Part shown: positions 7,918-63,720 of the stretch, piece by piece
Layout of the letters: each line of letters starts with the position of its first letter
Position numbering within the stretch: the first letter of the stretch is position 1
From: Candidatus Dormiibacterota bacterium
GTDB taxonomy: Bacteria; Chloroflexota; Limnocylindria; Limnocylindrales; CSP1-4
Direction of reading: 5' to 3'
Assembly (NCBI GenBank): GCA_035631615.1
Contig: DASQIK010000016.1
Location: forward strand, 64,577-128,576
DNA length: 64,000 nucleotides
Notes under the pieces: generated by a model
Database searches by the model: none
The model's input: only the letters and a program-made list of their open reading frames with translations
What the model was told of the DNA's origin: nothing
Program-made: the position numbers and the translations under genes

Positions 7918-8945
7918 GGTTTGCTGGTGGCCACCGCCGGCGCGCGCATGACCGTCGCCGGGTCGATCCCGGCCTCGCGCAGGTCTGCCTCGAGCATCAG
8001 CCAGACGAGGCCGTGGAACGTCGTCCGGGGCTCCCAGCCGAGCACGCGCTCGGCCTTGGAGGCGTCGCCGCGCAGGGCGTCGACCTCGGTCGCGCGGAAG
8101 TAGCGCTGGTCGATGCGGACGTGGTCCTGCCAGTCGAGCCCGACCAGGCTGAAGGCGACCTCGACGAGCTCCTGGACCGAGTGCGTCTCGCCGGTCGCGA
8201 TCACGTAGTCGTCCGGCGAGTCCTGCTGGACGATCCGCCACATCGCCTCGACGTACTCCTTGGCGTAGCCCCAGTCACGGCGCGCCTCGAGGTTGCCCAT
8301 GTACAGGTGTTGCTCCTGGCCGCCGATGATCGAGGCGATGCCGCGGGTGACCTTGCGCGTCACGAAGGTGCCGCCGCGGCGCGGCGATTCGTGGTTGAAC
8401 AGGATCCCGTTCGAGGCGTGCATGCTGTACGCGTCGCGGTACTGGATGGTCATCCAGTGGGCGAAGACCTTCGCGATCGCGTATGGGCTGCGCGGGTGGA
8501 AGGGCGTCGTCTCGGACTGCGGCGGCGGCGTGCTGCCGAACATCTCGCTCGACCCGGCCTGGTAGAACCGGATCGGCGAGTCGACGGAGCGGATCGCCTC
8601 GAGCAGTCGCAGCGTGCCCATGCCCGCACTGTCCGCGGTGAACTCGGGGACCTCGAAGCTGACCTTGACGTGGCTCTGGGCGCCCAGGTTGTAGACCTCG
8701 TCGGGCTTGATCCGGTGGAGGTGCGAGAACAGCGACGACGGATCGGTCAGGTCTGCGTAGTGCAGGAAGAGCCGCGTCTCGTGTTCGTGAGGGTCCTTGT
8801 AGAGGTGGTCGATACGGCCCGTCGTGAACGAGCTCGAGCGGCGGATCAGGCCGTGGACCTCGTAGCCCTTCTCGAGCAGGAGCTCGGCGAGATACGAGCC
8901 GTCCTGGCCGGTGATCCCGGTGATCAGTGCCTTTCGGGTGGTCAT
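7914..8945 (-). CDS. gmd: GDP-mannose 4,6-dehydratase
   Basis: '[44 protein letters not shown]', '[10 protein letters not shown]', 'SPYAIAK' and '[10 protein letters not shown]' are canonical Gmd motifs. Confidence 0.9.
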
Positions 8946-8960
8946 GTCGGCCGATTGTAG

Positions 8961-9218
8961 GTGCCGGACGCCTCAGCCAAGGTGCTACCGTCCGGCCGCG
9001 TGGCCACGAGCACCTTCGGACTCCGCACGTTGGAGCGGCCGGCGTTCCGCCGGATCCTGATCGTCGCGCTGGTCGCGATCGTTGGGACGTTCAGGGTGCG
9101 GCAGACGCTCGGGTACCTGATCCTGCTGGTTGCGCTCATCCGCGTGTCGATTGGCGCTCGGCGACGGCAGGGCGGTGGCATCGCCGAAGACAAGCTCCCG
9201 ATGGCGGCCGCGGGATGA
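8961..9218 (+). CDS. Small two-helix membrane protein (hypothetical)
   Basis: 85-aa ORF not overlapped by any other call. Two hydrophobic helices ('[13 protein letters not shown]', '[16 protein letters not shown]'). Only 11 of 85 codons end in A/T by hand count, which is coding-like. Its TGA overlaps the ATG of the next gene (ATGA at 9215..9218). The true start may be internal, e.g. TTG 9030. Confidence 0.45.
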
Positions 9219-11503: not shown

Positions 11504-12265
11504 ATGCCGTCGCCCACCGGTAGCGCCCCGACCAGCCTCACGCTCGTCCTGCCGGCCTACAACGAGGCGAAGCGGATCGGCCCAGCGCTCGACGACCTGA
11601 TGGCGTACCTGCGCACGCGGCCTGCCGATCTCCCGATGACCGACGTCCTCGTCGTCGACGACGGCAGCTCGGACGAGACGGCCGCTTTGGTTGCGTCCCG
11701 ACCCGAGGTCGTCGACGGCCTGCTGCGCGTGATGAGCGTGCCGCACGCCGGCAAGGGCGCCGCCGTTCGCGCCGGGGTGCTGGCCGCGACCGGTGATCTC
11801 ATCGTCTTCGCCGACGCCGACATGGCGACCCCGCCGCCGGAGCTGGTGAAGCTCGTTGCCGCGCTCTCGACCGCCGACGTCGCGCTCGGCAGCCGGATCC
11901 AGCCGGACGGCACCGACATGCGCGCCTCGCAGCCGCGGTACAGGCGGTTCCTCGGCGGGGTGTTCCACACGCTGGCCTCGGTGTGGGTCGTGGGCAACGT
12001 CAAGGACACCCAGGCGGGGTTCAAGGGCTTCACCAACGAGGCGGCGCACGACCTGTTCGCCCGGCAGAAGGTGACCTCGATCGTGTTCGACGTCGAGCTC
12101 ATCCACCTCGCACGCCGGCGGGGGTACCGCATCGCGATCGTGCCGATCCGCTGGGAGGACGTGCGCGGCTCACGCATGCGGCCCGGCCCGCGGCTTGCCC
12201 TGCGCGTCGCCTGGGACCTCTTCCGAATCCCGCTCCTGCACCGCGACGTCCGCCGGCGGCCGTGA
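11504..12265 (+). CDS. GT2 glycosyltransferase, polyprenyl/dolichyl-phosphate sugar synthase-like
   Basis: 'LTLVLPAYNEAKRIGPALDDL', 'VLVVDDGSSDET', 'IVFADADMATPP' and 'DTQAGFKGF' are typical DPM1/Ppm1-like GT2 motifs. Start placed at ATG 11504 inside ORF 11267..12265. Confidence 0.8.
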   Translation: MPSPTGSAPTSLTLVLPAYNEAKRIGPALDDLMAYLRTRPADLPMTDVLVVDDGSSDETAALVASRPEVVDGLLRVMSVPHAGKGAAVRAGVLAATGDLIVFADADMATPPPELVKLVAALSTADVALGSRIQPDGTDMRASQPRYRRFLGGVFHTLASVWVVGNVKDTQAGFKGFTNEAAHDLFARQKVTSIVFDVELIHLARRRGYRIAIVPIRWEDVRGSRMRPGPRLALRVAWDLFRIPLLHRDVRRRP

Positions 12266-13368
12266 GCCGTCGGGCGGCGTACGTCCGCATCGGGTACGTC
12301 GTCGCCCTGGCTGCCGCGCTGCTGATCGCGGCGCTGTTCCTCTTCGCGGCCTGGTCCAGCGGGGCGCTCGGCTTCGACTACAAGGCGTACGACCTCGCGG
12401 TCGACCACCTGTTTGCGGGCCAGACCATGTACTACCCGAACGTCCAGGAGACCGGCTCGTTCGGCCTGTTCTTCTACCCGCCGCCGTTCGCGCTGTTCGT
12501 GATCCCGTTCGCGGTCCTGCCGGTGGACGTGGGCGTGGTCGCGTGGACCGGGTTCCTCGTCTTCGTTTCCGTGCTGGCCGTGGCGGCGATGCCCGTCGCG
12601 GCGCGGGTTCGCTGGGCCGTGCTCCTGCTCGCGGCGCTGTCCTGGCCGCTGGTCTACGCGATCAAGCTCGGGCAGGTCGGCCCGATCATCCTGCTGACCT
12701 TCGCGCTCGGCTGGCGGTGGCTCGATCGGCCGTGGCGGCTCGGGCTGTCCGTGGCGGTCGGGACGGTGGTGAAGATCCAGCCGGCGCTGCTGATCGGCTG
12801 GGCGATGGTCACCGGGCGGCGGCGTGCCGCGATCGTGGCCGTGATCGCCGTCGCGGTCATCGCGGCGGTGGCGACGGTCGTCGCGGGGCCGGCGTCGTGG
12901 TTCCAGGAGGCCGACCTGCTCGGCCGCGTCTCCAAGCCGATCCTCACGCCGCATGCCTTCGGGATCGGGCGGCTGCTGTACGAGGCGGGCGTCCCCGAGG
13001 GCGTGGCGCTCGCCGTGCACGTAGCGAATCTCGCCCTCGTGGCGCTCGTGGCGGCATTCGCAGTCTGGCGCGCCTCGGCGGCGGGGTCGTACCTCGCGGT
13101 CGTGGTCGCCTCGCAGTTCCTCTCGCCCGTGCTTTGGGACCACTACGCCCTGATCCTGCTGCTGCCCGTCGCGTGGCTCCTCGCGCGCGGCCGCTGGTGG
13201 GCGGCCGTCATCCCCCTCGCCACCGCGACGCCACTCCTCCTCCTGCCCATCCCCGGCACGGGCTGGATCTACCCGGTCGTCTTCTGGGCGGCGCTGCTCG
13301 CGGTCACATGGGAAGGCGTTCGTGACTCCGCCGGATCCGGATCCACCCGGCCCAACGGATTTCGATGA
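12262..13368 (+). CDS. GT87/DUF2029-family polytopic membrane glycosyltransferase
   Basis: GTG 12262 forms a GTGA overlap with the GT2 stop. 'FDYKAYDLAVDHLFAGQTMYYPN...GLFFYPPPFALFVIPFA' is the GT87 signature. The 3' end runs into a 24-bp repeat array. Confidence 0.7.
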   Translation: MSRRAAYVRIGYVVALAAALLIAALFLFAAWSSGALGFDYKAYDLAVDHLFAGQTMYYPNVQETGSFGLFFYPPPFALFVIPFAVLPVDVGVVAWTGFLVFVSVLAVAAMPVAARVRWAVLLLAALSWPLVYAIKLGQVGPIILLTFALGWRWLDRPWRLGLSVAVGTVVKIQPALLIGWAMVTGRRRAAIVAVIAVAVIAAVATVVAGPASWFQEADLLGRVSKPILTPHAFGIGRLLYEAGVPEGVALAVHVANLALVALVAAFAVWRASAAGSYLAVVVASQFLSPVLWDHYALILLLPVAWLLARGRWWAAVIPLATATPLLLLPIPGTGWIYPVVFWAALLAVTWEGVRDSAGSGSTRPNGFR

Positions 13369-13523
13369 ACCGGGCCCACCGGGGACGCCGGATCCCGATC
13401 AACCCGGCCCGCCCGATCCTGATGAACCGGGCCCGCCGGCGCCGATCCACCGGGGCCGCCGGCGCCGATCGCCGCCCGCCGGATCCCGATCCACCCGGCC
13501 CGCCGGCGCGGATCGTGGCCCCA
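13331..13523. repeat. Degenerate 24-bp tandem array (about 8 units, consensus near CCGGATCCCGATCCACCCGGCCCG)
   Basis: Read directly: units at 13331, 13355, 13388, 13412, 13436, 13479 and others. The units at 13331 and 13479 are nearly identical. The array overlaps the last 38 nt of the GT87 CDS. Confidence 0.8.
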
Positions 13524-13524
13524 T

Positions 13525-13705
13525 GGTCACCAGCTGACCTTTTCCGGCGATTCCCGGGGCGTTTCCCGTCCAGGGATGCCCGCCGAAGCCGACCTCACGC
13601 ACGAATCGCCGGGATCGGCTCGGTCCCAAGCTGGTCAATCCTCTGTCGATGGGCCGAATCGCCCGAAATCGGCGCTGAATCCCCCAGAAAGGTCACCCGG
13701 TGACC
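13525..13705. repeat. Composite inverted-repeat element, copy 1 (about 40-bp arms, each with a GGTCAC-N3-GTGACC palindrome, an A/T run and CCGGxGATTCCCGG)
   Basis: Left arm GGTCACCAGCTGACCTTTTCCGGCGATTCCCGGGGC (13525..). Right arm GAATCCCCCAGAAAGGTCACCCGGTGACC (..13705). A homologous element is at 23033..23234. Confidence 0.8.
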
Positions 13706-13761
13706 ATCGCCGGGCTGTTTCGACCATCGCCGGGCTGTTTCGACCATGCCGGGCAGCTTCG
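13702..13761. repeat. 20-bp tandem repeat, three units (GACCATCGCCGGGCTGTTTC x2 plus a degenerate third)
   Basis: Perfect units at 13702..13721 and 13722..13741. A 19-nt variant lies at 13742..13760. The array starts inside the right arm of the inverted-repeat element. Confidence 0.85.
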
Positions 13762-13989
13762 ACCGCCGGCCCCCCTCTGCCCATCGGTGGTCACGACAGA
13801 CGTCGGTCGAATGTTCCGTGGGCGATCGTTTCCAGGCGTTTCCAGGGCATCAGCGGTCCGCGACGGTCGCGTTGAAGCGGTTCCATGCTCAAGACGCCCG
13901 GATTCGTGGCCGCCGGCGGTGCCGAAATGCATCGATATTGAGATATTGCACAGGCAAGCAATCCCGGGATCTGGTGGTATCGTGATCGG

Positions 13990-15405
13990 GTGACCCCCTC
14001 GATCACCGCAGACCCCGAATGTGCGCGTCCGGCTCGCGCTGACGCGCGCGCCGGCGAATCCGAACCCCAGCGCAACTCCTCACCGGGCGCACCGGGCGCA
14101 CCGGGCGCACCGGGCGCAACGGGCGCAACGGGCGCATCGGGCGCAACGGGCGCAACGGGCGCAGCTGGGGCAGCGGGCGCAGCGAGCGCCGCGAGCCGCC
14201 GAGCCGCTGCCACTCCCGTTCGCGCCGAGCGGCGCGCCTTCTCCGACATCGACCCCGCGACCTGGAACCAGCTTGCGTTCCTGAACCCGTATGCCACCCC
14301 GTTCTCGGCGTGGGCATTCCATCGAGCGTGGTGGGACGCATACGGCGAGAACGCGCACGACCAGACCGTGGTGATCGTCGATCCATCGGCGGCGGACCCG
14401 ACGAGACCCGTTGCGATCGTGCCGCTCATGGATCGCCATGTCCTCGAGCCGAACGACGCCGCGACCCACACGATGCTTCGCCACGCCGAAACGCTCCCCC
14501 TCACGCCGGTCGCCCCCACCGCGTGCGCGGTCTACTTCGGTGCCAGCTACCACGCGGACTACGCCACGCTCCTCGCCCATCCCGCCGACATGCCCCGCGC
14601 CGCCGCGGCGCTCGTCGATGCGCTGGCCCGCGACGCCGTCGCGCCGACGCCCAATCCCGACGACACGGCCCACCTCGACCCCTGGGGCGCGGTCGACCTT
14701 CGTCGCCTCCGCCAGGCCGACCCCGCGACCGACGCCCTCGCCACGGCGTTCGGCACGCGCGAGATCGGCGAGGGCTGGACGCTCAACGTCGAGCGCGAGG
14801 ACGTCTGCCCGGTCATCCGCATCCCCGAGGGCGCCGACTTCGACGGCCTGCTCGCGACCCTCGGCAAGAAGGAGCGCCACGAGATCCGGCGCAAGGTCCG
14901 GCGCGCCGAGGCGGCGGGCGCCGTCGAGCTCGTCGAATCGACCGACCCGGTTGCCGACCTCGACGGCTTCATCGACCTCCACCAGGCGCGCTGGGGGGAT
15001 CGCGGCCTGTTTCCGCCGACGCCCGGCGGCGACCAGAGCCGGCATTTCATGCGGCGCCTGTTCGAGCTGTTCGGCGAGGCCACGACCTCGAGCGCCGCTC
15101 CGGACGCGAGCCACCCGACGGTCCACCTGAGCTTCCTGATCGTCGCAGGCAAACGGATCGCGGCGGAGATCCATTTCGAGACCGTCGGCTCGGTCATGTA
15201 CTACAACGCCGGCGTCGACCCGGAAGCGCGCGAGCTGTCGCCGGGCGTCGTCCTGCTGGAGCGCCTCGTGCGACGCGCGATCGACCGCGGCAAGTGCCGC
15301 GTCGATCTGCTCCGGGGCGACGAGCCGTACAAGTACGAGTGGGGCGGCGTCGACGAGCCGGTGCAGCGGATCCTCGTTCGCCGCGGCGCGAGGGCGGCCG
15401 CGTGA
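13990..15405 (+). CDS. GNAT-fold acetyltransferase, CelD/BcsL-like (FemAB-related), with N-terminal Gly-Ala-X repeat extension
   Basis: 'FSDIDPATWNQLAFLNPYATPFSAWAFHRAWWDAYG' and the C-terminal 'MYYNAGVDPEARELSPGVVLLERLVRRAIDRGKCRVDLLRGDEPYKYEWG' resemble the CelD-like acetyltransferase family. The only in-frame ATG/GTG/TTG upstream of the conserved N-terminus is GTG 13990. The 9-bp repeat array is therefore translated. Confidence 0.65.
   Translation: MTPSITADPECARPARADARAGESEPQRNSSPGAPGAPGAPGATGATGASGATGATGAAGAAGAASAASRRAAATPVRAERRAFSDIDPATWNQLAFLNPYATPFSAWAFHRAWWDAYGENAHDQTVVIVDPSAADPTRPVAIVPLMDRHVLEPNDAATHTMLRHAETLPLTPVAPTACAVYFGASYHADYATLLAHPADMPRAAAALVDALARDAVAPTPNPDDTAHLDPWGAVDLRRLRQADPATDALATAFGTREIGEGWTLNVEREDVCPVIRIPEGADFDGLLATLGKKERHEIRRKVRRAEAAGAVELVESTDPVADLDGFIDLHQARWGDRGLFPPTPGGDQSRHFMRRLFELFGEATTSSAAPDASHPTVHLSFLIVAGKRIAAEIHFETVGSVMYYNAGVDPEARELSPGVVLLERLVRRAIDRGKCRVDLLRGDEPYKYEWGGVDEPVQRILVRRGARAAA
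14081..14188 (+). repeat. 9-bp tandem repeat, 12 units (CACCGGGCG / CAACGGGCG variants), in frame in the GNAT gene
   Basis: Read directly: 4x CACCGGGCG, then CAACGGGCG, CAACGGGCG, CATCGGGCG, CAACGGGCG, CAACGGGCG, then 3 degenerate units. Encodes 'GAPGAPGAPGATGATGASGATGATGAAGAAGAAS'. Confidence 0.9.
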
Positions 15406-21843: not shown

Positions 21844-21948
21844 CGGGTTGGACTCTAGCAGTTGGGACACGTCGTCGACGATGGCACATAGGTGAGGGCA
21901 GGTGCTGAAAACGCGGGTCTGGACGTGTCCCCCTACTCTGTACGACCC

Positions 21949-22917
21949 GTGACTCGACTGCGAACCTTCACCCGACCCACCGCGTTCCGGACGCTCGATC
22001 GCCTGCTCGCTCGCTTGCCCGAGCCCGTCGAGGCGCGCGTTCGGGATCGGCTCGGCCTCGACCTGTTCGTGGTCGTGGCGGTCGTGGTGGTCGCGCTGCG
22101 GCTGTTCAACCGTACCCCGTGGACGCCGGTCGTGCTCGACATGCACACGTACTGGGCCACGGGAGCGGGAATCAGCTACGTCAATTCGAATCCATACGCG
22201 ATCGGCGCCTACCTCTACGCGCCGGCGTTCGCCCAGCTGCTGTACCCGCTGACCACCCTGCCGTGGCCGTGGTTCGCCGCGCTCTGGACCGCGGCGATCG
22301 CGGCGGTCTACATCTGGCTCGTCGGGCGCTGGGCGTTCCCGATCCTGCTGCTCACGGGGGCGGTCGCGCTCGAGCTGTACCTGGGCCAGATCGACGTGTT
22401 CATCGCGGCGGCGATCGTCATCGGCTTCCGGTACCCGGTCGCGTGGGCCTTCCCGCTGCTGACGAAGGTCGCGCCGGGCATCGGCCTGCTCTGGTTCCTG
22501 TTCCGGCGGGAGTGGCGGAATCTCGCCATCGCGGTGACCGCGACGGTCGCACTGGCGGGTGTCTCGGCGTGGCTCGCGCCGAACCTGTGGCACGAGTGGT
22601 ACGACCTCCTCCGCCGCAGCATCATGGACAGGCAGGTCGTCGAGGGCGCGTACCTGGGCATTCCGGTGTGGCTGCGTCTCCCGTTCGCCGTCGCGATCAT
22701 CTTCTGGGGCGCCCGCACGTCCCGGCACTGGACCGTCCCGGTCGCGGTCCTCCTCGCCATGCCGATCCTCTGGATCAACGTCTTCACCCTGCTCCTCGCG
22801 GCCGTGCCGCTGCGCGAGGAGTTCGGCCTCACGCCCGCACGCGCCTGGCTCCTGCGCGAGCGCCTCCTCCCCGACGCCCTCAAGCCCAAGCCCACGGTGG
22901 CCCCACAGGCCGGCTGA
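21949..22917 (+). CDS. GT87/DUF2029-like polytopic membrane protein
   Basis: 'DMHTYWATGAGISYVNSNPYAIGAYLYAPAFAQLLYPLTTLP' resembles the GT87 first-loop motif. About 9 TM helices. Start uncertain: GTG 21949 chosen, GTG 21892 possible. Confidence 0.6.
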   Translation: MTRLRTFTRPTAFRTLDRLLARLPEPVEARVRDRLGLDLFVVVAVVVVALRLFNRTPWTPVVLDMHTYWATGAGISYVNSNPYAIGAYLYAPAFAQLLYPLTTLPWPWFAALWTAAIAAVYIWLVGRWAFPILLLTGAVALELYLGQIDVFIAAAIVIGFRYPVAWAFPLLTKVAPGIGLLWFLFRREWRNLAIAVTATVALAGVSAWLAPNLWHEWYDLLRRSIMDRQVVEGAYLGIPVWLRLPFAVAIIFWGARTSRHWTVPVAVLLAMPILWINVFTLLLAAVPLREEFGLTPARAWLLRERLLPDALKPKPTVAPQAG

Positions 22918-23032
22918 CCTCCGGGAGCGGCCCCTCGCTCCCGCCCGCTTGCCCGGGGCGCCGTCCGCGGTGAACGTCCGCGGCCATTCGGTCGCGCCAA
23001 GCCCGTGTTCGATCCACAGATCGCCGGCGAAT

Positions 23033-23234
23033 GGTCACGCGGTGACCTTTTTCCGCGTTTCTCCGGGGATTTGGCCGACCGATGGCCGTCCCATCAGCCC
23101 ATGACTCGCGCGCCTCGCCGCATCCCGCGTTCGCCAAGCTCGAAGCGACGTCGCGGATCTGCCGTTGGCGGGCAGCAGCCGACGCCGCCCGGCGAAGTCG
23201 GCCGGGAATCCCCGGAAAAGGTCACGTGGTGACC
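23033..23234. repeat. Composite inverted-repeat element, copy 2
   Basis: Left arm GGTCACGCGGTGACCTTTTTCCGCGTTTCTCCGGGGATTT (23033..). Right arm CCGGGAATCCCCGGAAAAGGTCACGTGGTGACC (..23234). Arms and the sub-terminal 45 bp align with copy 1 at 13525..13705. Confidence 0.8.
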
Positions 23235-23300
23235 ACCCGGCGGCTTTCCGTCTCCACAACGCCGTGGATCGTCGAACCCGTGGCCTGTACCGTTCGCTCG

Positions 23301-24890
23301 ATGGCAGCCGCGAAGCAGCCCCGAAGCGCGCGCGCTGCCGGCCTGTCGCTCGCCGAGCTGTGGATGTTCCTCGGCGTAGCCCTGCCGACGCTCGCCGCAC
23401 TCCTCGTCCCGATGCCGTCCGTCGACCTGGCGTACCAGCTGCGTGCCGGCGCGGGGATCCTCGCCGGCCACGGCATCCCGGCCACGGACACGTGGACGTT
23501 CACGATCGCCGGCGCGCCGTGGCTCGACCAGCAGTGGGGTGCGCAGGTGCTCCTCGCCGCGGTGTACCAGGCCGCGGGCTGGACCGGCCTTGCCCTGCTT
23601 CGCGCGGCACTCGTCGGCGCCACGTTCTGGCTGGTCATGGCGACGCTTCGATCGATGGGCTGTGCCGCCCGACCGGCCGCGCTCCTGGCGCTCGGCGGCT
23701 TTGTCGTCGCGGCGCCCGCGCTCGCGCTCCGGCCGCAGCTCTTCACGATCGTCCTGTTCGCTGCGGCGCTCGCGATCCTCGCGGACCGTGCCCGGCACCC
23801 GAGACGTCTCCTCCTCCTGCCGCTGATGGCGGTCGCCTGGGCGAACCTCCACGGCAGCTTCCCGCTCATCGTCGTGGTGCTCGGGCTCGGCTGGGCGGAC
23901 GAGATCGGCCGCGTGCTCGTGGCGCGCGCCGCGATCCGACCCGGCCACGGCCCCGGCCGCGCGTCGGCGGCGATCCGCGGCTCGACCGGCCTCGCCCTCC
24001 TCGCGGCCATCTCGGCGCTGGCGACGCTCGCGACCCCGTTCGGCATCGACGCGTGGCGGTACGTCGAGCACCTCGCGGCAGATCCCTCGGTGACGTCCGC
24101 GGTGAGCGAGTGGCGCCCGCCGTCACCAACCGACCCGACCGGCGCGATCTTCTACATCTCGCTGCTGATCGCGGTGGTAATCGTCGTGCTCCGCGTCCGA
24201 GCCGATCGCAACCGCGTCGTGCCGGCGACGTTCGCCCCGATCGCAACGCTCCTGGTATTCGGCGTCCTCGGCGTGGTGACCGCCCGCGGCCTCGCGTGGT
24301 GGGCGCTGGTCCTGCCGATCTCCGCGTCGGCCCTCACCCACGATGGCAGCCTCGCGCGGTTCCTGCCGCGGCGCCTCGGCGTCCTGCGCACGCTGTTCAC
24401 CGGCCCCAGCGTCCAGTCGCTCGCGCGCCAGAACCGACCCTCCCAGCTGAACACGATCGTGGCACTGCTGCTGATCCTCGTCGGCATTGGCCTGCTGCCC
24501 GCCTGGCGCCCGATCGGCCCGGCCGGCGTCCCGACCGGAGTCCTGAGCTATGCGCCCCAGGGCATCGCGGCCAAGCTCGACGCCTACGCCCGCGCGCGCA
24601 TGCCGATCGGCCTGGTCCGTATTTGGGTGCCGCAGTCATGGGGATCGTGGATCGAGTTTGCGGCGCCCGACGCGCTCGTCTCGGTCGACTCGCGCATCGA
24701 GCTGTACCCGCCCGACATCTGGATTTCCATCGGAACGGTCGCCGCGGGAGGACTGCGTTCGACGACGACGCTCAGCAGCTATCACGCGAACGTCGTGGTG
24801 GTACCCGCGGGTCAGGATTTCTCGGGCTCGAGCGCCTGGGCCATGATCTACCAGGACGCCGACGGCTCGATCTGGGCGACTGGGCCTTGA
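23301..24890 (+). CDS. Large polytopic membrane protein (GT-C-like candidate, family not recognised)
   Basis: About 13 hydrophobic helices. Periplasmic-loop-like motif 'VDLAYQLRAGAGILAGHGIPATDTWTFTIAGAPWLDQQWG'. ATG 23301 chosen. In-frame GTGs at 23226 and 23229 inside the repeat element, preceded by GGAAAAGG, are alternative starts. Confidence 0.6.
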   Translation: MAAAKQPRSARAAGLSLAELWMFLGVALPTLAALLVPMPSVDLAYQLRAGAGILAGHGIPATDTWTFTIAGAPWLDQQWGAQVLLAAVYQAAGWTGLALLRAALVGATFWLVMATLRSMGCAARPAALLALGGFVVAAPALALRPQLFTIVLFAAALAILADRARHPRRLLLLPLMAVAWANLHGSFPLIVVVLGLGWADEIGRVLVARAAIRPGHGPGRASAAIRGSTGLALLAAISALATLATPFGIDAWRYVEHLAADPSVTSAVSEWRPPSPTDPTGAIFYISLLIAVVIVVLRVRADRNRVVPATFAPIATLLVFGVLGVVTARGLAWWALVLPISASALTHDGSLARFLPRRLGVLRTLFTGPSVQSLARQNRPSQLNTIVALLLILVGIGLLPAWRPIGPAGVPTGVLSYAPQGIAAKLDAYARARMPIGLVRIWVPQSWGSWIEFAAPDALVSVDSRIELYPPDIWISIGTVAAGGLRSTTTLSSYHANVVVVPAGQDFSGSSAWAMIYQDADGSIWATGP

Positions 24891-29868: not shown

Positions 29869-31266
29869 TCAGGCCAGGTCGGCTGCGGGGGACCCCGGCG
29901 CTGGGGCGTCGTGGGCACGCGCGGCGCGGGCGCCGTGCTGGCCGAGCAGCGGGATCGGTCGAAGGTCGGGCTCGCCGGTGTCCCGAACGTCGTCGGCCCA
30001 CGAGGTCTTCACGAACGCGTCGACGATCTCGGGGTCGAACTGGACGCCGGCGAACTTGCGGAGCTCGGCGAGCGCCTGCCCGGTCGACAGCGCCTTGCGG
30101 TACGGCCGGTCGGCCGTCATCGCCTCGAACGCGTCGGCGACATGGAGGATCCGCGCGAGCCTGGGGATCTCGTCGCCCATCAGTCGATCCGGGTAGCCCG
30201 AGCCGTTGTACCACTCGTGATGGTGGCGGATGACCGGCAGCTCCGGCGCGAGCCGATCCACAGGCCCGATGATCTGCGCGCCCAGCACCGGGTGGGCGTT
30301 CATCGTGATCCGCTCCTCGCGGGTCAGCTTGCCCTGCTTCAGCAGCACGTTGTCCGGCACGCCGATCTTGCCCACGTCGTGAAGCAGCCCGCCCCACTCC
30401 AGGGCCTCGAGCTCGCCCGCCGACACCCGCAGCTCACGCCCGATGTCGACCGAGATCGAGCGCACCCGCTGGCTGTGCTTGCTCGTGAACGGATCGCGCT
30501 TGTCCACCGCCTCCGCCAGCGCCCCGATCGTCTGCGTGAACATCTCCCGCATCTCGACGAATCGCTGATAAGCGACTCGGGTCGTGAAGAGAGGCAATCC
30601 GAACAAGAGCGTTGTCCACCAGCCGCCGTCCCGGAGTTCGTACATCCTCGCCATCAACCAGCCGAGCGGCGCCAACGTAAGTAGGTTGGCCCAGATGTTC
30701 GAGGTCTCGGCTCGTGTCAGGAACTCGCGTGCCGATAGACCTGTCCGGAACACAACGACCAGCGACACGAACACGAGGTTGGTTACGAAGTACGTCAAGG
30801 TCCCCAGAAGGGTCGCGACAAGCTCCTGGAATGCGTTGCCGTCCCCCCTGAAGAGCTCAATGACGACCGAACCGAAGATGACCGGAAGCACGATTGCTGC
30901 GTGGTTTGCCAAAGTCCCATACCAGGCGACCCGGCCGCGCAGTTCCCGCGCGTCGGTCGTCCCGATCAGCGCCACCCATGCCGCAGCCGCAGGTCCGCCG
31001 AGCACGGCGGCAGCCATAAGCGGAGCGGTGGAAACGGCGACTTGCACCCCGTGACTCACGCGGACCGGGAGAGCCGATGCAATCAGGGTGATCACAGTCC
31101 AGAACGCGACCCCGAGGAGGACCTCGACCACGCTCGAGGTGTTCGGATCGCCGTCGAAGGAGATCGCGATTGCAGGCTGCACAGGAATCACAAGGCTCGT
31201 GATGAGCAGCGCCGCTGTGGCCGCTCCCACGAGCCCGGTGACGTATATCGCGAGGGACCTAGGCAA
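29869..31266 (-). CDS. Membrane-anchored HD-GYP domain cyclic-di-GMP phosphodiesterase
   Basis: 'HSQRVRSISV', 'GLLHDVGKIGVPDNVLLKQGKLT' and 'HHEWYNGSGYPDRL' form an intact HD and GYP motif set. N-terminal ~230 aa contain about 7 TM helices. TTG start at 31266. Confidence 0.85.
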   Translation of the reverse strand: MPRSLAIYVTGLVGAATAALLITSLVIPVQPAIAISFDGDPNTSSVVEVLLGVAFWTVITLIASALPVRVSHGVQVAVSTAPLMAAAVLGGPAAAAWVALIGTTDARELRGRVAWYGTLANHAAIVLPVIFGSVVIELFRGDGNAFQELVATLLGTLTYFVTNLVFVSLVVVFRTGLSAREFLTRAETSNIWANLLTLAPLGWLMARMYELRDGGWWTTLLFGLPLFTTRVAYQRFVEMREMFTQTIGALAEAVDKRDPFTSKHSQRVRSISVDIGRELRVSAGELEALEWGGLLHDVGKIGVPDNVLLKQGKLTREERITMNAHPVLGAQIIGPVDRLAPELPVIRHHHEWYNGSGYPDRLMGDEIPRLARILHVADAFEAMTADRPYRKALSTGQALAELRKFAGVQFDPEIVDAFVKTSWADDVRDTGEPDLRPIPLLGQHGARAARAHDAPAPGSPAADLA

Positions 31267-31512: not shown

Positions 31513-31534
31513 ACCGACCTGACTCTGGGTCGGT
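31513..31534 (-). terminator. Putative intrinsic terminator downstream of the STAND regulator gene
   Basis: The minus strand reads ACCGACC-CAGAGTCA-GGTCGGT followed by TTTCGTGTTTCT. That is a 7-bp stem, an 8-nt loop and a T-rich tail. Confidence 0.45.
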
Positions 31535-31706
31535 CGGTTGCACTACTCGCTCAGCTCCACCCTAAGTGCCCATTTCAGGTGGAGCCTCGGCGCGTCCGAG
31601 CGTTCTTAGATTGGTTCGGTAGTACGCAAGTACCACTCGAGGGCCGGACTATAGGTAGACCCAACTGAACCGGTCAATACGCATGTCTACCTATCTACAC
31701 CTAGCC

Positions 31707-38258: not shown

Positions 38259-38286
38259 ATCATACCGAACGGGTGTTCGATGTCAA
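38259..38286 (-). promoter_or_regulatory. lexA promoter with embedded Cheo-type SOS box
   Basis: The minus strand reads TTGACA-TCGAACACCCGTTCGG-TATGAT. The LexA box CGAAC-N4-GTTCG (38266..38279) fills the -35/-10 spacer. Confidence 0.8.
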
Positions 38287-41669: not shown

Positions 41670-41699
41670 TTGACATCGAACACCCGTTCGATCTAGCCT
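41670..41699 (+). promoter_or_regulatory. SOS-box promoter, near-identical copy of the lexA promoter
   Basis: TTGACA (41670..41675), TCGAACACCCGTTCGA (41676..41691), then TAGCCT (41694..41699). The 22-mer CTTGACATCGAACACCCGTTCG is identical to the lexA promoter on the opposite strand. Confidence 0.75.
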
Positions 41700-41780
41700 C
41701 TGGCCGAAACCGAACAGGCGTTCACGGCACCAGTGCCCGGTGACCGGAGCTCGCAATGGCCCCCCGAAAGGAGCCGCGAA

Positions 41781-42056
41781 ATGGCGATGATCCGAGTCGA
41801 GCCGGTCGAGGTCCGGGTTCGTGCCGATTGGTTCGACGGCCGCCCCCGCGAGGTGACCCTCAACGGCCGGCGGCTTCGCGTCCTGGACGTCCTCGGCGTC
41901 CGCGACGAGAGCTCCGCGTTCCCGGTCGTGACCGGACCGCGCACGCTCTTCGAGATCGAGACGGCGGACGCCCGCCTCCAGCTGGCGTTCCGCCATCGAT
42001 CCCGCCGCTGGACGATCGAAGGTGTGGAGACGCACGAGGCGTACAAGGCGGCATAG
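41781..42056 (+). CDS. Small hypothetical protein (91 aa), predicted LexA-regulated
   Basis: ATG 41781 is preceded by GAAAGGAG at a 7-nt spacing. It lies about 80 nt downstream of the SOS-box promoter. Sequence 'MAMIRVEPVEVRVRADWFDGRPREVTLNGRRLRVLDVLG...WTIEGVETHEAYKAA'. No family recognised by eye. Confidence 0.55.
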   Translation: MAMIRVEPVEVRVRADWFDGRPREVTLNGRRLRVLDVLGVRDESSAFPVVTGPRTLFEIETADARLQLAFRHRSRRWTIEGVETHEAYKAA

Positions 42057-62895: not shown

Positions 62896-63720
62896 ATGAG
62901 CACCACGCAGAAGCTCGGTGCACTCTTCGGCGCAGTCGTGCTGCTGTTCGCGGTCATCGGGATCGCTGCCGCGGCGGCGCCCGGGGTTACCGAGCAGGGC
63001 GTTTCGCCGATCCTGCACGACGGTGCCAACATCACCGCCGCCGGCGACGGCAACAACGACAAGGCGAACTGCAATGCCGCCGATGCGGTGGAGATCGGGG
63101 ACACCTCCGGCGACAGCACGTCGACCAACGGTGTCACGGTTCACATGACCACCGGCAACGGCGAGTCGGGTGAGCAGGGCAACGAAGTCGACTTCACGGT
63201 CGACAACGGCGTCGTCACGATCGCCTACATCAAGGGCGGCAACGGCTACAACGAGTACGACTACGGCGTGAGTGGGGCGGCATGGGATGCCGACCTGTAC
63301 TCGCCGGTGAACGGCAGTGGCAACCCGGCCGGCCTCAGCCACGCCGTGTTCTGCACCGGCCCGGCGCAGCCGTCGGAGGCTCAGTCCGACGCGCCGTCGT
63401 TCGAGCAGAGCCAGGCGGATACGACGTCGGCTCCTTCGGAAGCCGCTCCTTCGGACCCCGTTTCTTCGGAAGCCGCTCCCTCGGAAGCCGCTCCCTCGGA
63501 AGCCGCTGCGTCGGAGCCCGTTTCTTCGGACCCCGTTTCGGGGGCTCCGTCCTTCGAGCAGCGCCTGGCCGACCTGACGCAGTGCCCGTGCGACACGACC
63601 GCCGGCCTCGCGAACACCTCCCACCCGGCTGGCGGGGCGTGGCTCCTCGTGGTTGCGCTCGGGGTGCTGCTCGCGAGTGTCGTCGTGCTCACCCCGGCGC
63701 GGGCCAAGAACCGGCGCTAG
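62896..63720 (+). CDS. Secreted repeat protein with C-terminal sortase-like sorting signal
   Basis: ATG 62896 is preceded by GGAGGGA. Signal peptide 'LGALFGAVVLLFAVIGIAAAAAP'. Seven 'SEAAP'-type repeats. C-terminus 'LANTSHPAGGAWLLVVALGVLLASVVVLTPARAKNRR' has a motif, a hydrophobic helix and a basic tail. Confidence 0.65.
   Translation: MSTTQKLGALFGAVVLLFAVIGIAAAAAPGVTEQGVSPILHDGANITAAGDGNNDKANCNAADAVEIGDTSGDSTSTNGVTVHMTTGNGESGEQGNEVDFTVDNGVVTIAYIKGGNGYNEYDYGVSGAAWDADLYSPVNGSGNPAGLSHAVFCTGPAQPSEAQSDAPSFEQSQADTTSAPSEAAPSDPVSSEAAPSEAAPSEAAASEPVSSDPVSGAPSFEQRLADLTQCPCDTTAGLANTSHPAGGAWLLVVALGVLLASVVVLTPARAKNRR
63430..63534 (+). repeat. 15-bp in-frame tandem repeat, 7 units (GCTCCxTCGGAAGCC variants)
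   Basis: Units at 63430, 63445, 63460, 63475, 63490, 63505 and 63520 were read directly. They encode the (A/V)(P/S)SE(A/P) repeats of the secreted protein. Confidence 0.85.

Follow-up and report, generated by a model that had tools for sequence, protein, structure and literature searches.

Short inverted-repeat elements with helically spaced dyads in a Limnocylindria-type lineage of Chloroflexota

We analysed a 64-kb stretch of DNA (the window; coordinates are window positions unless a relative is named) from contig DASQIK010000016.1 of a Candidatus Dormiibacterota bacterium. At two places in the window a gene for a GT87 glycosyltransferase is followed by a short non-coding element that consists of two arms in inverted orientation and a variable core (Table 1). 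Element 1 precedes a gene encoding an Acetyltransf_6 protein, and element 2 a gene encoding a 529-residue protein. The latter is 100% identical to a protein of a metagenome-assembled genome (MAG) labelled Candidatus Dormibacteraeota, and its relatives come from Limnocylindria/Limnocylindrales MAGs; the GT87 protein, as delimited here, is not a recorded one. Both elements are members of a repeat family that has not been described before. Its short non-coding copies are scattered between the genes of a Limnocylindria-type lineage of Chloroflexota, and the distances between their two arms fall on a lattice with the period of the DNA helix.

Arms and core of the elements

An earlier note on this DNA had described the two copies as composites of inverted arms behind GT87-like genes. 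The Pfam assignments bear out both glycosyltransferase genes, and the four 15-bp dyads of the arms are found exactly where the note had placed them. The inverted-arm unit itself proved real and slightly longer than supposed: judged by information content over 44 aligned arms, which sets the element bounds, the conserved part begins 16 nt outside the dyad and ends ~41 nt inside it (offsets -16 to +41), which gives an arm of ~58 nt. The dyad has the form GGTCAC-N3-GTGACC in the window, with one mismatch to a palindrome in the left arm of element 1, and G-N-TC-R-C-N3-R-Y-GA-N-C in the family. It is flanked by CGAT on its outer side and by A/T tracts ~10.5 bp apart on its inner side, and the arm consensus reads C.aa.tGcC.ccCGAT-GaTCACc.caTGAtC-ATTTccGGcgcTTcg.gGGcCaTTTcG.

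The four window arms, when aligned, have ATGGTCAC-N3-STGACC-TTT and scattered inner positions in common. The similarity that the note had seen between the copies holds for the arms, all of which match the family arm profile (E = 5e-10 to 3e-9), but not for the cores, which have little in common. Likewise, the second near-palindrome that it had assigned to each arm, CCGG(G/C)GATTCCCGG, is present in the left arm of copy 1 and the right arm of copy 2 and is missing from the other two; family-wide, this stretch is a conserved TTCYGG...TT with phased T tracts and no palindrome. The bare dyad is not rarer than chance in the window (5 matches with up to two mismatches, 4.75 expected). The composite 33-nt arm pattern with up to three mismatches is matched twice with 0.00 expected, and the left arm of copy 1 together with the right arm of copy 2 forms the top-listed inverted repeat of the window (49 nt, 80% complementary). 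The arm profile finds the two elements and no more in the window, and in L008 and L009, two independent Logan assemblies, element 2 has exactly the same sequence.

Across the family the units mostly measure ~200-255 bp, with one remnant of ~108 bp, and contain no conserved open reading frame (ORF). The core is poorly conserved except for a central GAGCACGAA motif in many copies; the exact motif GAGCACGAA(TCG) occurs in 9 of 27 cores, in either orientation, and stands within the palindrome TTCGTGCACGAA in two of them. In element 1 its centre lies 69 bp from the centre of the left dyad and 97 bp from that of the right. Arms are 56% identical on average; when they were compared for signs of concerted evolution, identity was 69% among copies of the same genome versus 49-67% among copies at orthologous sites.

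The half-sites of the dyad co-vary. Alignment columns 20/32 pair as AU 16, GC 6, UA 6, CG 4 and UG 2, with 10 unpaired, columns 23/29 as AU 26, GU 8 and GC 5, and at both column pairs the covariation exceeds that of every shuffle. Some genomes prefer one dyad variant: all four window arms have GGTCAC, and the arms of OTE_25_metabat_404 (see below) mostly have GATC. A duplex-binding dimer whose specificity drifts between lineages could account for this symmetry no less well than a hairpin.

Several further signals were noted in the arms. Most arms, read inward, hold a four-codon mini-ORF with its stop codon (ATG-N9-TGA, for instance MVTS*), as at 13522-13537 (+), 23030-23045 (+) and 13708-13693 (-), and with GTG for ATG in the arm at 23237-23222 (-); it probably just follows from the CGATG flank together with the RTGA in the dyad. 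A subset of arms contains TGGCAC-N5-GGGC, which resembles sigma-54 -24/-12 spacing and points inward from both ends. No Rfam covariance model reaches its gathering score at either copy, and a second threshold likewise returned only noise at E = 0.2-8. The dyad is no parS site, for the window contains no parS-like site with up to two mismatches, and it is no LexA box either. Cheo-type LexA boxes (CGAAC-N4-GTTCG) stand at 38266-38279, at the 5' end of lexA, and at 41677-41724, upstream of a small ORF (41733-42056); in relatives such a box lies upstream of recA (L095, ~3745; L048, ~7530, reverse strand). The SOS box of the clade, as used at lexA and recA, is hence distinct from the dyad of the element.

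Table 1. Positions of the elements, their parts and associated features
Feature	Positions	Strand	Remarks
Element 1, whole unit	13509-13721		two inverted arms and variable core; dyad-to-dyad distance 166 bp
Element 1, left arm	13509-13566	+	dyad 13525-13539 (GGTCACCAGCTGACC), TTTT, phased T tracts; arm profile E = 2.8e-09
Element 1, central motif	13597-13608	+	ACGCACGAATCG; family motif GAGCACGAA(TCG)
Element 1, right arm	13664-13721	-	dyad 13691-13705 (GGTCACCCGGTGACC); arm profile E = 8.4e-10
Element 2, whole unit	23017-23250		dyad-to-dyad distance 187 bp, i.e. 166 bp plus two helical turns
Element 2, left arm	23017-23074	+	dyad 23033-23047 (GGTCACGCGGTGACC); arm profile E = 1.6e-09
Element 2, right arm	23193-23250	-	dyad 23220-23234 (GGTCACGTGGTGACC); arm profile E = 4.7e-10
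GT87 glycosyltransferase gene upstream of element 1	11983-13368	+	Pfam PF09594, E = 5.4e-21; context only
GT87 glycosyltransferase gene upstream of element 2	21892-22917	+	Pfam PF09594, E = 1.4e-11; context only
Gene for 529-residue protein downstream of element 2	23301-24890	+	no Pfam match; context only
20/21-nt tandem array, 3.2 copies	13702-13764	+	begins within the right dyad of element 1; its units duplicate the arm's outer end (GACCATCGCCGGGCTGTTTC)
CCTGTACCGTTCGC.CGATG, window	23281-23303		
CCTGTACCGTTCGC.CGATG, L001	9980-10003		
CCTGTACCGTTCGC.CGATG, L005	9978-10003		
CCTGTACCGTTCGC.CGATG, L010	9225-9244		

The dispersed family and the spacing of its dyads

A strict 30-nt pattern that fits the four window arms had no match in the genome or metagenome collections, the pattern being over-fitted and the source MAG lying outside these collections. 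A degenerate arm pattern built from 18 arms was run on a collection with one genome per species and returned 71 loci. About 54 of these lie in unrelated taxa, where 35-57 are expected by chance, and match the core of the pattern alone; the 17 true hits comprise 7 in UBA5189 (on 5 contigs), 7 in OTE_25_metabat_404 (Chloroflexota; on 7 contigs), 2 in the Limnocylindrales genome SMAG_U8691 and 1 in a MAG labelled 'Actinomycetota' (L076). By the arm profile, all hits in the clade fall into facing arm pairs 154-207 bp apart, except for the lone one in L076. The fetched loci contained two further elements close by, and metagenome contigs contributed at least three; a second metagenome scan gave 7 loci, of which 5 are real, and a scan of a viral collection gave chance hits only.

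The total amounts to 28 elements from the window, three Limnocylindria-type species genomes and several metagenome contigs, all built of two facing arms (one of them decayed in L042 and L069), with at least 7 on 5 contigs of UBA5189, at least 9 in OTE_25_metabat_404 and 2 in the window. The degenerate pattern caught 3 of 9 elements found by other means, that is, about a third, from which we estimate roughly 20 copies per genome. The presence of copies elsewhere and in relatives does away with a simple local duplication, which the earlier note had named as the alternative. The copies found at orthologous sites and across many contigs in the genomes of three related species support in outline the MITE-like or REP-like element that it had proposed (miniature inverted-repeat transposable element and repetitive extragenic palindrome, respectively).

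All 14 dispersed copies with mapped neighbours are intergenic, as are both window copies. Four, including those of the window, lie between tandem genes, about six between convergent and two between divergent genes, with other arrangements for the remaining copies; some sit in divergent promoter regions. Adjacent genes encode a histidine kinase, glutamine synthetase, a HAD hydrolase, a TPR protein, adenylate cyclase, an HD-GYP response regulator, RecA, LOG, luciferase-like monooxygenases, GcvT and a GT1 glycosyltransferase. Since these functions have no common theme, the link to glycan genes is incidental. The note's suggestion of paired operators for a regulator of the glycan locus is excluded by this distribution, in which copies adjoin unrelated genes and several occupy convergent gaps. 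What survives of it is binding of a protein at each dyad, which is supported by the lattice of spacings described next. A tempting story is thereby removed, that of a device by which the glycan locus is regulated. The window copies are passengers in the gaps behind two GT87 genes, and if they terminate or insulate transcription of the glycan operons at all, they would do so incidentally.

The 27 dyad-to-dyad distances take the values 154, 156, 166-169 (11 elements), 176-178 (8), 186-188 (4), 198 and 207 bp, with nothing between them. Their best-fitting period is 10.4 bp (R = 0.85), a fit reached in none of 5000 simulations under each of three null models (uniform, normal, and each length jittered by up to 5 bp), and the lattice persists among the 16 elements that are left when the main length class is taken out. 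The distances from the central motif to the dyads behave in the same manner (69, 77-80, 87-90, 97-101 or 109-111 bp; period 10.3 bp, 0 of 5000 simulations), and the A/T tracts of the arms, centred at offsets of about -13, -1.5, 16.5, 26.5, 37.5 and 47, give a periodogram peak at 10.5 bp. The extra length sits at differing places among the elements, whose cores align poorly, so that the lattice looks like a constraint on the product and not like a repeated mutational unit. The lengths of the internal eliminated sequences (IESs) of Paramecium are periodic at ~10 bp as well, which was interpreted to mean that protein-bound ends must share a face of the helix to close a short loop (PMC3464196). 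The interpretation follows the classical helical-twist experiments with transposon ends, repressor loops and Hin inversion (PMC3464196).

The spacing bears directly on readings in which the arms act as RNA or as single-stranded DNA. The stem of the arm has 5-6 bp, its innermost pair is unpaired in 25 of the 44 arms, and the consensus fold has an energy of -3.9 kcal/mol. Folding of single arms, a check proposed in the note, gave no better energies than shuffling did (z = -0.07 to -1.1), and of the four window arms read inward, three have a minimum-energy fold without the dyad hairpin. A terminator scan returned 3 hits where 2.7 are expected; the flag on one of the four window arms, the left arm of copy 2, corresponds to the chance rate. 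In most family arms the T run is replaced by AGATTC, ATTTC or AAATC.

Back-to-back terminator hairpins, as the note had suggested, are thus weakly founded. We regard paired inward-facing intrinsic terminators, or RNA-level insulators against read-through from both sides, as very improbable, even though each window arm read inward presents a hairpin followed by T3-5, one arm passes the scan, about six copies lie between convergent genes and the RNA of the whole element is mildly structured in comparison with shuffled sequence (z = -1.9 and -2.3). The stable GC-rich stem followed by a U tract that marks an intrinsic terminator is not seen, copies in divergent promoter regions fit poorly, and a function at the RNA level does not account for a lattice with the period of the DNA helix.

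A better claim, although still an improbable one, can be made for a unit of the type known as a REPIN or BIME (REP doublet forming hairpins and bacterial interspersed mosaic element, respectively). The arm would be a REP-like hairpin recognised in single-stranded form by a REP-associated tyrosine transposase (RAYT; IS200-like HUH), and the inverted doublet would be the mobile unit. An intergenic pair of inverted palindromes with a spacer and without target-site duplication is what defines a REPIN (PMC3337134, PMC3116915), and all 28 elements consist of such a facing pair. Compensatory changes preserve the pairing of the stem. The tetranucleotide GTAG stands next to REP stems, and the conserved CGAT that abuts the stem here is reminiscent of it. 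The stable imperfect palindrome of a REP is, however, not found in these short and partly unpaired stems, the lattice has no role in a mechanism based on single-stranded hairpins, the copies number tens and not hundreds, and no RAYT gene was seen in the window or in the loci fetched around the copies.

Short tandem arrays lie by 20 of the 28 copies, against a background of 1.2 arrays per kb at lenient settings of TRF, and this enrichment is no more than suggestive; outside the window, such arrays flank copies in L014, L011, L048, L086, L025 and L052. Around element 1, besides the 20/21-nt array (Table 1), 24-nt tandem repeats (13329-13515) lie between the stop codon of the GT87 gene (13368) and the element. 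They encode proline-rich repeats of the PDPDPPGP type in a frame that differs from the GT87 frame and stops at a TGA within the left dyad (13535-13537); this frame may represent a frameshifted or recently lost Pro-rich C-terminal tail. Downstream, a 9-nt array of 11.8 copies (CGGGCGCAA) at 14084-14189 codes for a run of collagen-like G-x-y triplets within the 5' portion of the Acetyltransf_6 ORF (13990-15405, with a tentative start codon).

Orthologous sites and interpretation of the family

We compared syntenic loci of relatives at two sites, namely the gap between the GT87 and acetyltransferase genes (site 1) and that between the GT87 gene and the gene of the 529-residue protein (site 2). 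Both sites are occupied in UBA5189 (L005/L006) and in L007 by elements built alike, with the dyads GATCGC...GCGATC and GTTCAC...GTGAAC; the variants found at orthologous sites are GATCGC/GCGATC, GTTCAC/GTGAAC, GGTCGC/GCGACC and GCTCAC/GTGAGC. The dyad distances amount to 166, 167 or 188 bp at site 1 and to 156, 177, 186 or 187 bp at site 2. L001 is empty at both sites, with gaps of 130 nt and 42 nt, and L010 and L013 are empty at site 2; the empty gaps of the three range from 42 to 130 nt. At site 2, L014 retains a 75-bp remnant that consists of two arms alone, and L011 has two complete elements head to tail, ~80 nt apart (8499-9029), with the dyads GATCAC and GGTCRC; this tandem pair fits either repeated insertion into one gap or local duplication followed by divergence.

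A third site lies between recA and a response-regulator gene, the conserved flanks of which include a Cheo-type LexA box. The gap measures 7 nt in L095 (the same genome as L001), which makes the site empty, ~350 nt in UBA5189, with an intact element, and ~247 nt in L099-L102, with a decayed one. A close relative, the genome of L001 and L095, thus lacks the element at all three sites, and we conclude that the element is dispensable. At orthologous sites the arms and the central motif can still be recognised in gaps that otherwise do not align.

Just before the start codon of the gene of the 529-residue protein, CCTGTACCGTTCGC.CGATG is kept in all relatives, with or without the element (Table 1), so that the proximal promoter-like sequence of this gene lies outside the element. 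A TACCGT 7 nt ahead of its ATG resembles the -10 box of a leaderless transcript.

These comparisons also speak to the notion that the core flips between recombination sites in the arms and renders glycan expression phase-variable. Invertible promoters of this kind are known from polysaccharide loci of Bacteroides and from fimS in E. coli. The position of the ~190-bp segments, between inverted repeats and immediately ahead of surface-glycan operons, would suit such an inverton, as would the dyad sites in the arms. Helical phasing, too, has a counterpart in the assembly of the Hin invertasome (reference 56 of PMC3464196). The subtypes of the left and right arms and the orientation of the core are, however, constant in all orthologues and in the near-identical assemblies that were compared (window with L008/L009, L005 with L006, L011 with L012). 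Moreover, the 3-nt spacers of the dyads usually differ between left and right, so that the arms share no crossover core, and the window contains no recombinase gene. With most copies away from glycan genes, several of them between convergent genes, and with the promoter-like sequence of the downstream gene outside the element and conserved without it, we discarded an inverton as hardly credible.

We give a probability of about 0.55 to the reading that the family is a MITE-like non-autonomous element, the ends of which are bound at the dyads as duplex DNA and joined across a bent loop. Short non-coding units with terminal inverted repeats, present in multiple dispersed copies, are what is expected of MITEs. 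In the mechanism that we propose, a dimeric protein, probably the element's own transposase or recombinase, would bind each dyad as duplex DNA, and a short loop of 170-210 bp would form as the two protein-bound ends meet. This loop would be pre-bent by the phased A/T tracts, possibly with help from a factor at the central motif. Competent lengths would then be those that place both ends on the same face of the helix, which would give rise to the length lattice.

A number of observations weigh against this reading. No target-site duplication of 2-5 bp was found at boundary offsets of 0 to 29; the sole signal, the AT by the dyad, is part of the repeat. Most DDE-type MITEs do make such a duplication. 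No transposase or recombinase is encoded in the window or by the ~20 scanned neighbour genes of other copies; the earlier note, too, had seen neither a target-site duplication nor a transposase at the window copies. No parent insertion sequence was found in the window or in loci of up to ~8 kb around other copies, and no arm pair was seen to enclose a gene. The copy number, by our rough estimate, is modest. Filled and empty sites differ by more than the unit, with 40-85 nt of extra non-conserved sequence accompanying the element, so that they do not represent clean insertions of a unit; we infer mobility, and no insertion event has been seen. A perfect dyad within each terminal repeat is unusual for transposase-binding ends and resembles an operator or a recombination site. 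Finally, the conservation of arms and motif in otherwise unalignable gaps, together with length differences of whole turns, suggests a constraint in place, which is not predicted for a purely selfish element.

The missing parent and enzyme, the missing target-site duplication, the operator-like dyad and the constraint in place keep a host looping module as the main rival. According to this alternative, which we consider possible but distinctly less probable than the MITE-like element, the repeats may formerly have spread by transposition and are now kept as architectural or regulatory modules. A host protein would occupy the central site and both dyads, forming a dimer on each of the latter and a tetramer that bridges them, and the resulting intergenic microloop of 16-20 turns would serve as an insulator, a domain boundary or a block to transcription. 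Dyads of 15 bp in a 6-3-6 arrangement are of the kind bound by small helix-turn-helix dimers, and every arm has one. The phasing of three sites on a 10.3-10.4-bp lattice and of the A/T tracts in the arms, the conservation of arms and central motif at orthologous sites with diverged cores and flanks, and the whole-turn differences between orthologous copies are all in keeping with such a module. Against this stand the absence of the element from three sites in one close relative and its decay at one site in another, which mark it as dispensable, the lack of a common theme or orientation among the neighbouring genes, and an average arm identity of just 56%; no candidate protein was identified. 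That the elements are maintained looping modules, more than decaying parasites, in which selection at each locus allows only whole-turn insertions and deletions likewise appears doubtful, if by a trifle less so. If true, it would turn the family into a genome-wide bacterial 'natural helical-twist experiment' and into a new class of repeat-borne architectural or insulator element in one uncultured lineage of Chloroflexota.

Irrespective of these alternatives, the data define a repeat family in Limnocylindria-type bacteria, an uncultured lineage from soil that is known here from metagenome assemblies alone. The length lattice is a rare sequence-only readout of mechanism, pointing to a loop of duplex DNA closed by two protein-bound ends. 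The 15-bp dyad provides a concrete bait for the partner protein, and insertions of ~5 bp are predicted to abolish the activity of the element.

Two features of the window lie apart from the elements. A cyclic di-guanosine monophosphate (c-di-GMP)-II riboswitch (RF01786, 62.5 bits, E = 1.5e-11) is found at 31523-31606 (-), directly upstream of an HD_5/MASE9 gene (29869-31266, -) that encodes an HD-GYP-type protein; a c-di-GMP sensor would thus precede a likely c-di-GMP phosphodiesterase. The arrangement is syntenic in relatives, whose annotation places a 29-residue ORF there. The other feature, close to the window's end at 63415-63550, is a tandem array with ~7 copies of a 15-nt unit (GCTCCTTCGGAAGCC-like).

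Comparison with known systems

A literature search on repeats in Limnocylindria returned nothing relevant. The Correia elements of Neisseria (PMC2649163, PMC2229807) are similar in being short non-coding units of 100-250 bp bounded by inverted repeats, with a conserved feature in the core (the IHF site in Correia), intergenic dispersal, variable presence among related genomes and discrete length classes. Unlike them, the elements described here have no TA or other target-site duplication and carry a 15-bp dyad of their own in each terminal repeat. They come in about six length classes one helical turn apart, compared with two that result from one internal deletion, and in lower copy number, a comparison that is made here by sequence alone.

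REPINs and BIMEs, REP doublets moved by RAYT (PMC3116915, PMC3337134), share with the family the intergenic location, the lack of a target-site duplication and the existence of lineage-specific variants. The palindrome of the present elements is far shorter and weaker than a REP stem, their spacer of 110-150 bp is helix-phased, the copies number tens instead of hundreds, and no RAYT was found. With the IESs of Paramecium (PMC3464196) the family has in common that lengths are quantised at the helical repeat of duplex DNA, which in Paramecium was read as a natural 'helical-twist experiment' that reveals looping between two protein-bound ends. IESs, however, are eukaryotic, single-copy and TA-bounded, they depend on a domesticated PiggyBac transposase for their removal, and it is the need for excision that exposes them to selection, whereas nothing in the present family requires excision.

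Two-operator looping in the lac, gal and ara systems, and MatP with its matS sites, exemplify proteins that bind palindromes and bridge them. They resemble the elements in that dyad sites bound by dimers are paired across a loop and that the helical phase of the spacing matters. The matS site, GTGAC-RNY-GTCAC, even contains the same two 5-mers as the window dyad, but in reversed order of the half-sites. In contrast to these systems, the site pair here forms part of a repeated, variably present unit of 200-255 bp, and no cognate protein is known.

Taken together, the elements are of a known kind, that of MITEs, REPINs, BIMEs and Correia elements (PMC2229807, PMC3116915, PMC2649163), in none of which the family finds clean membership. 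To this kind the helical lattice formed by three sites is an unusual and quantifiable addition.

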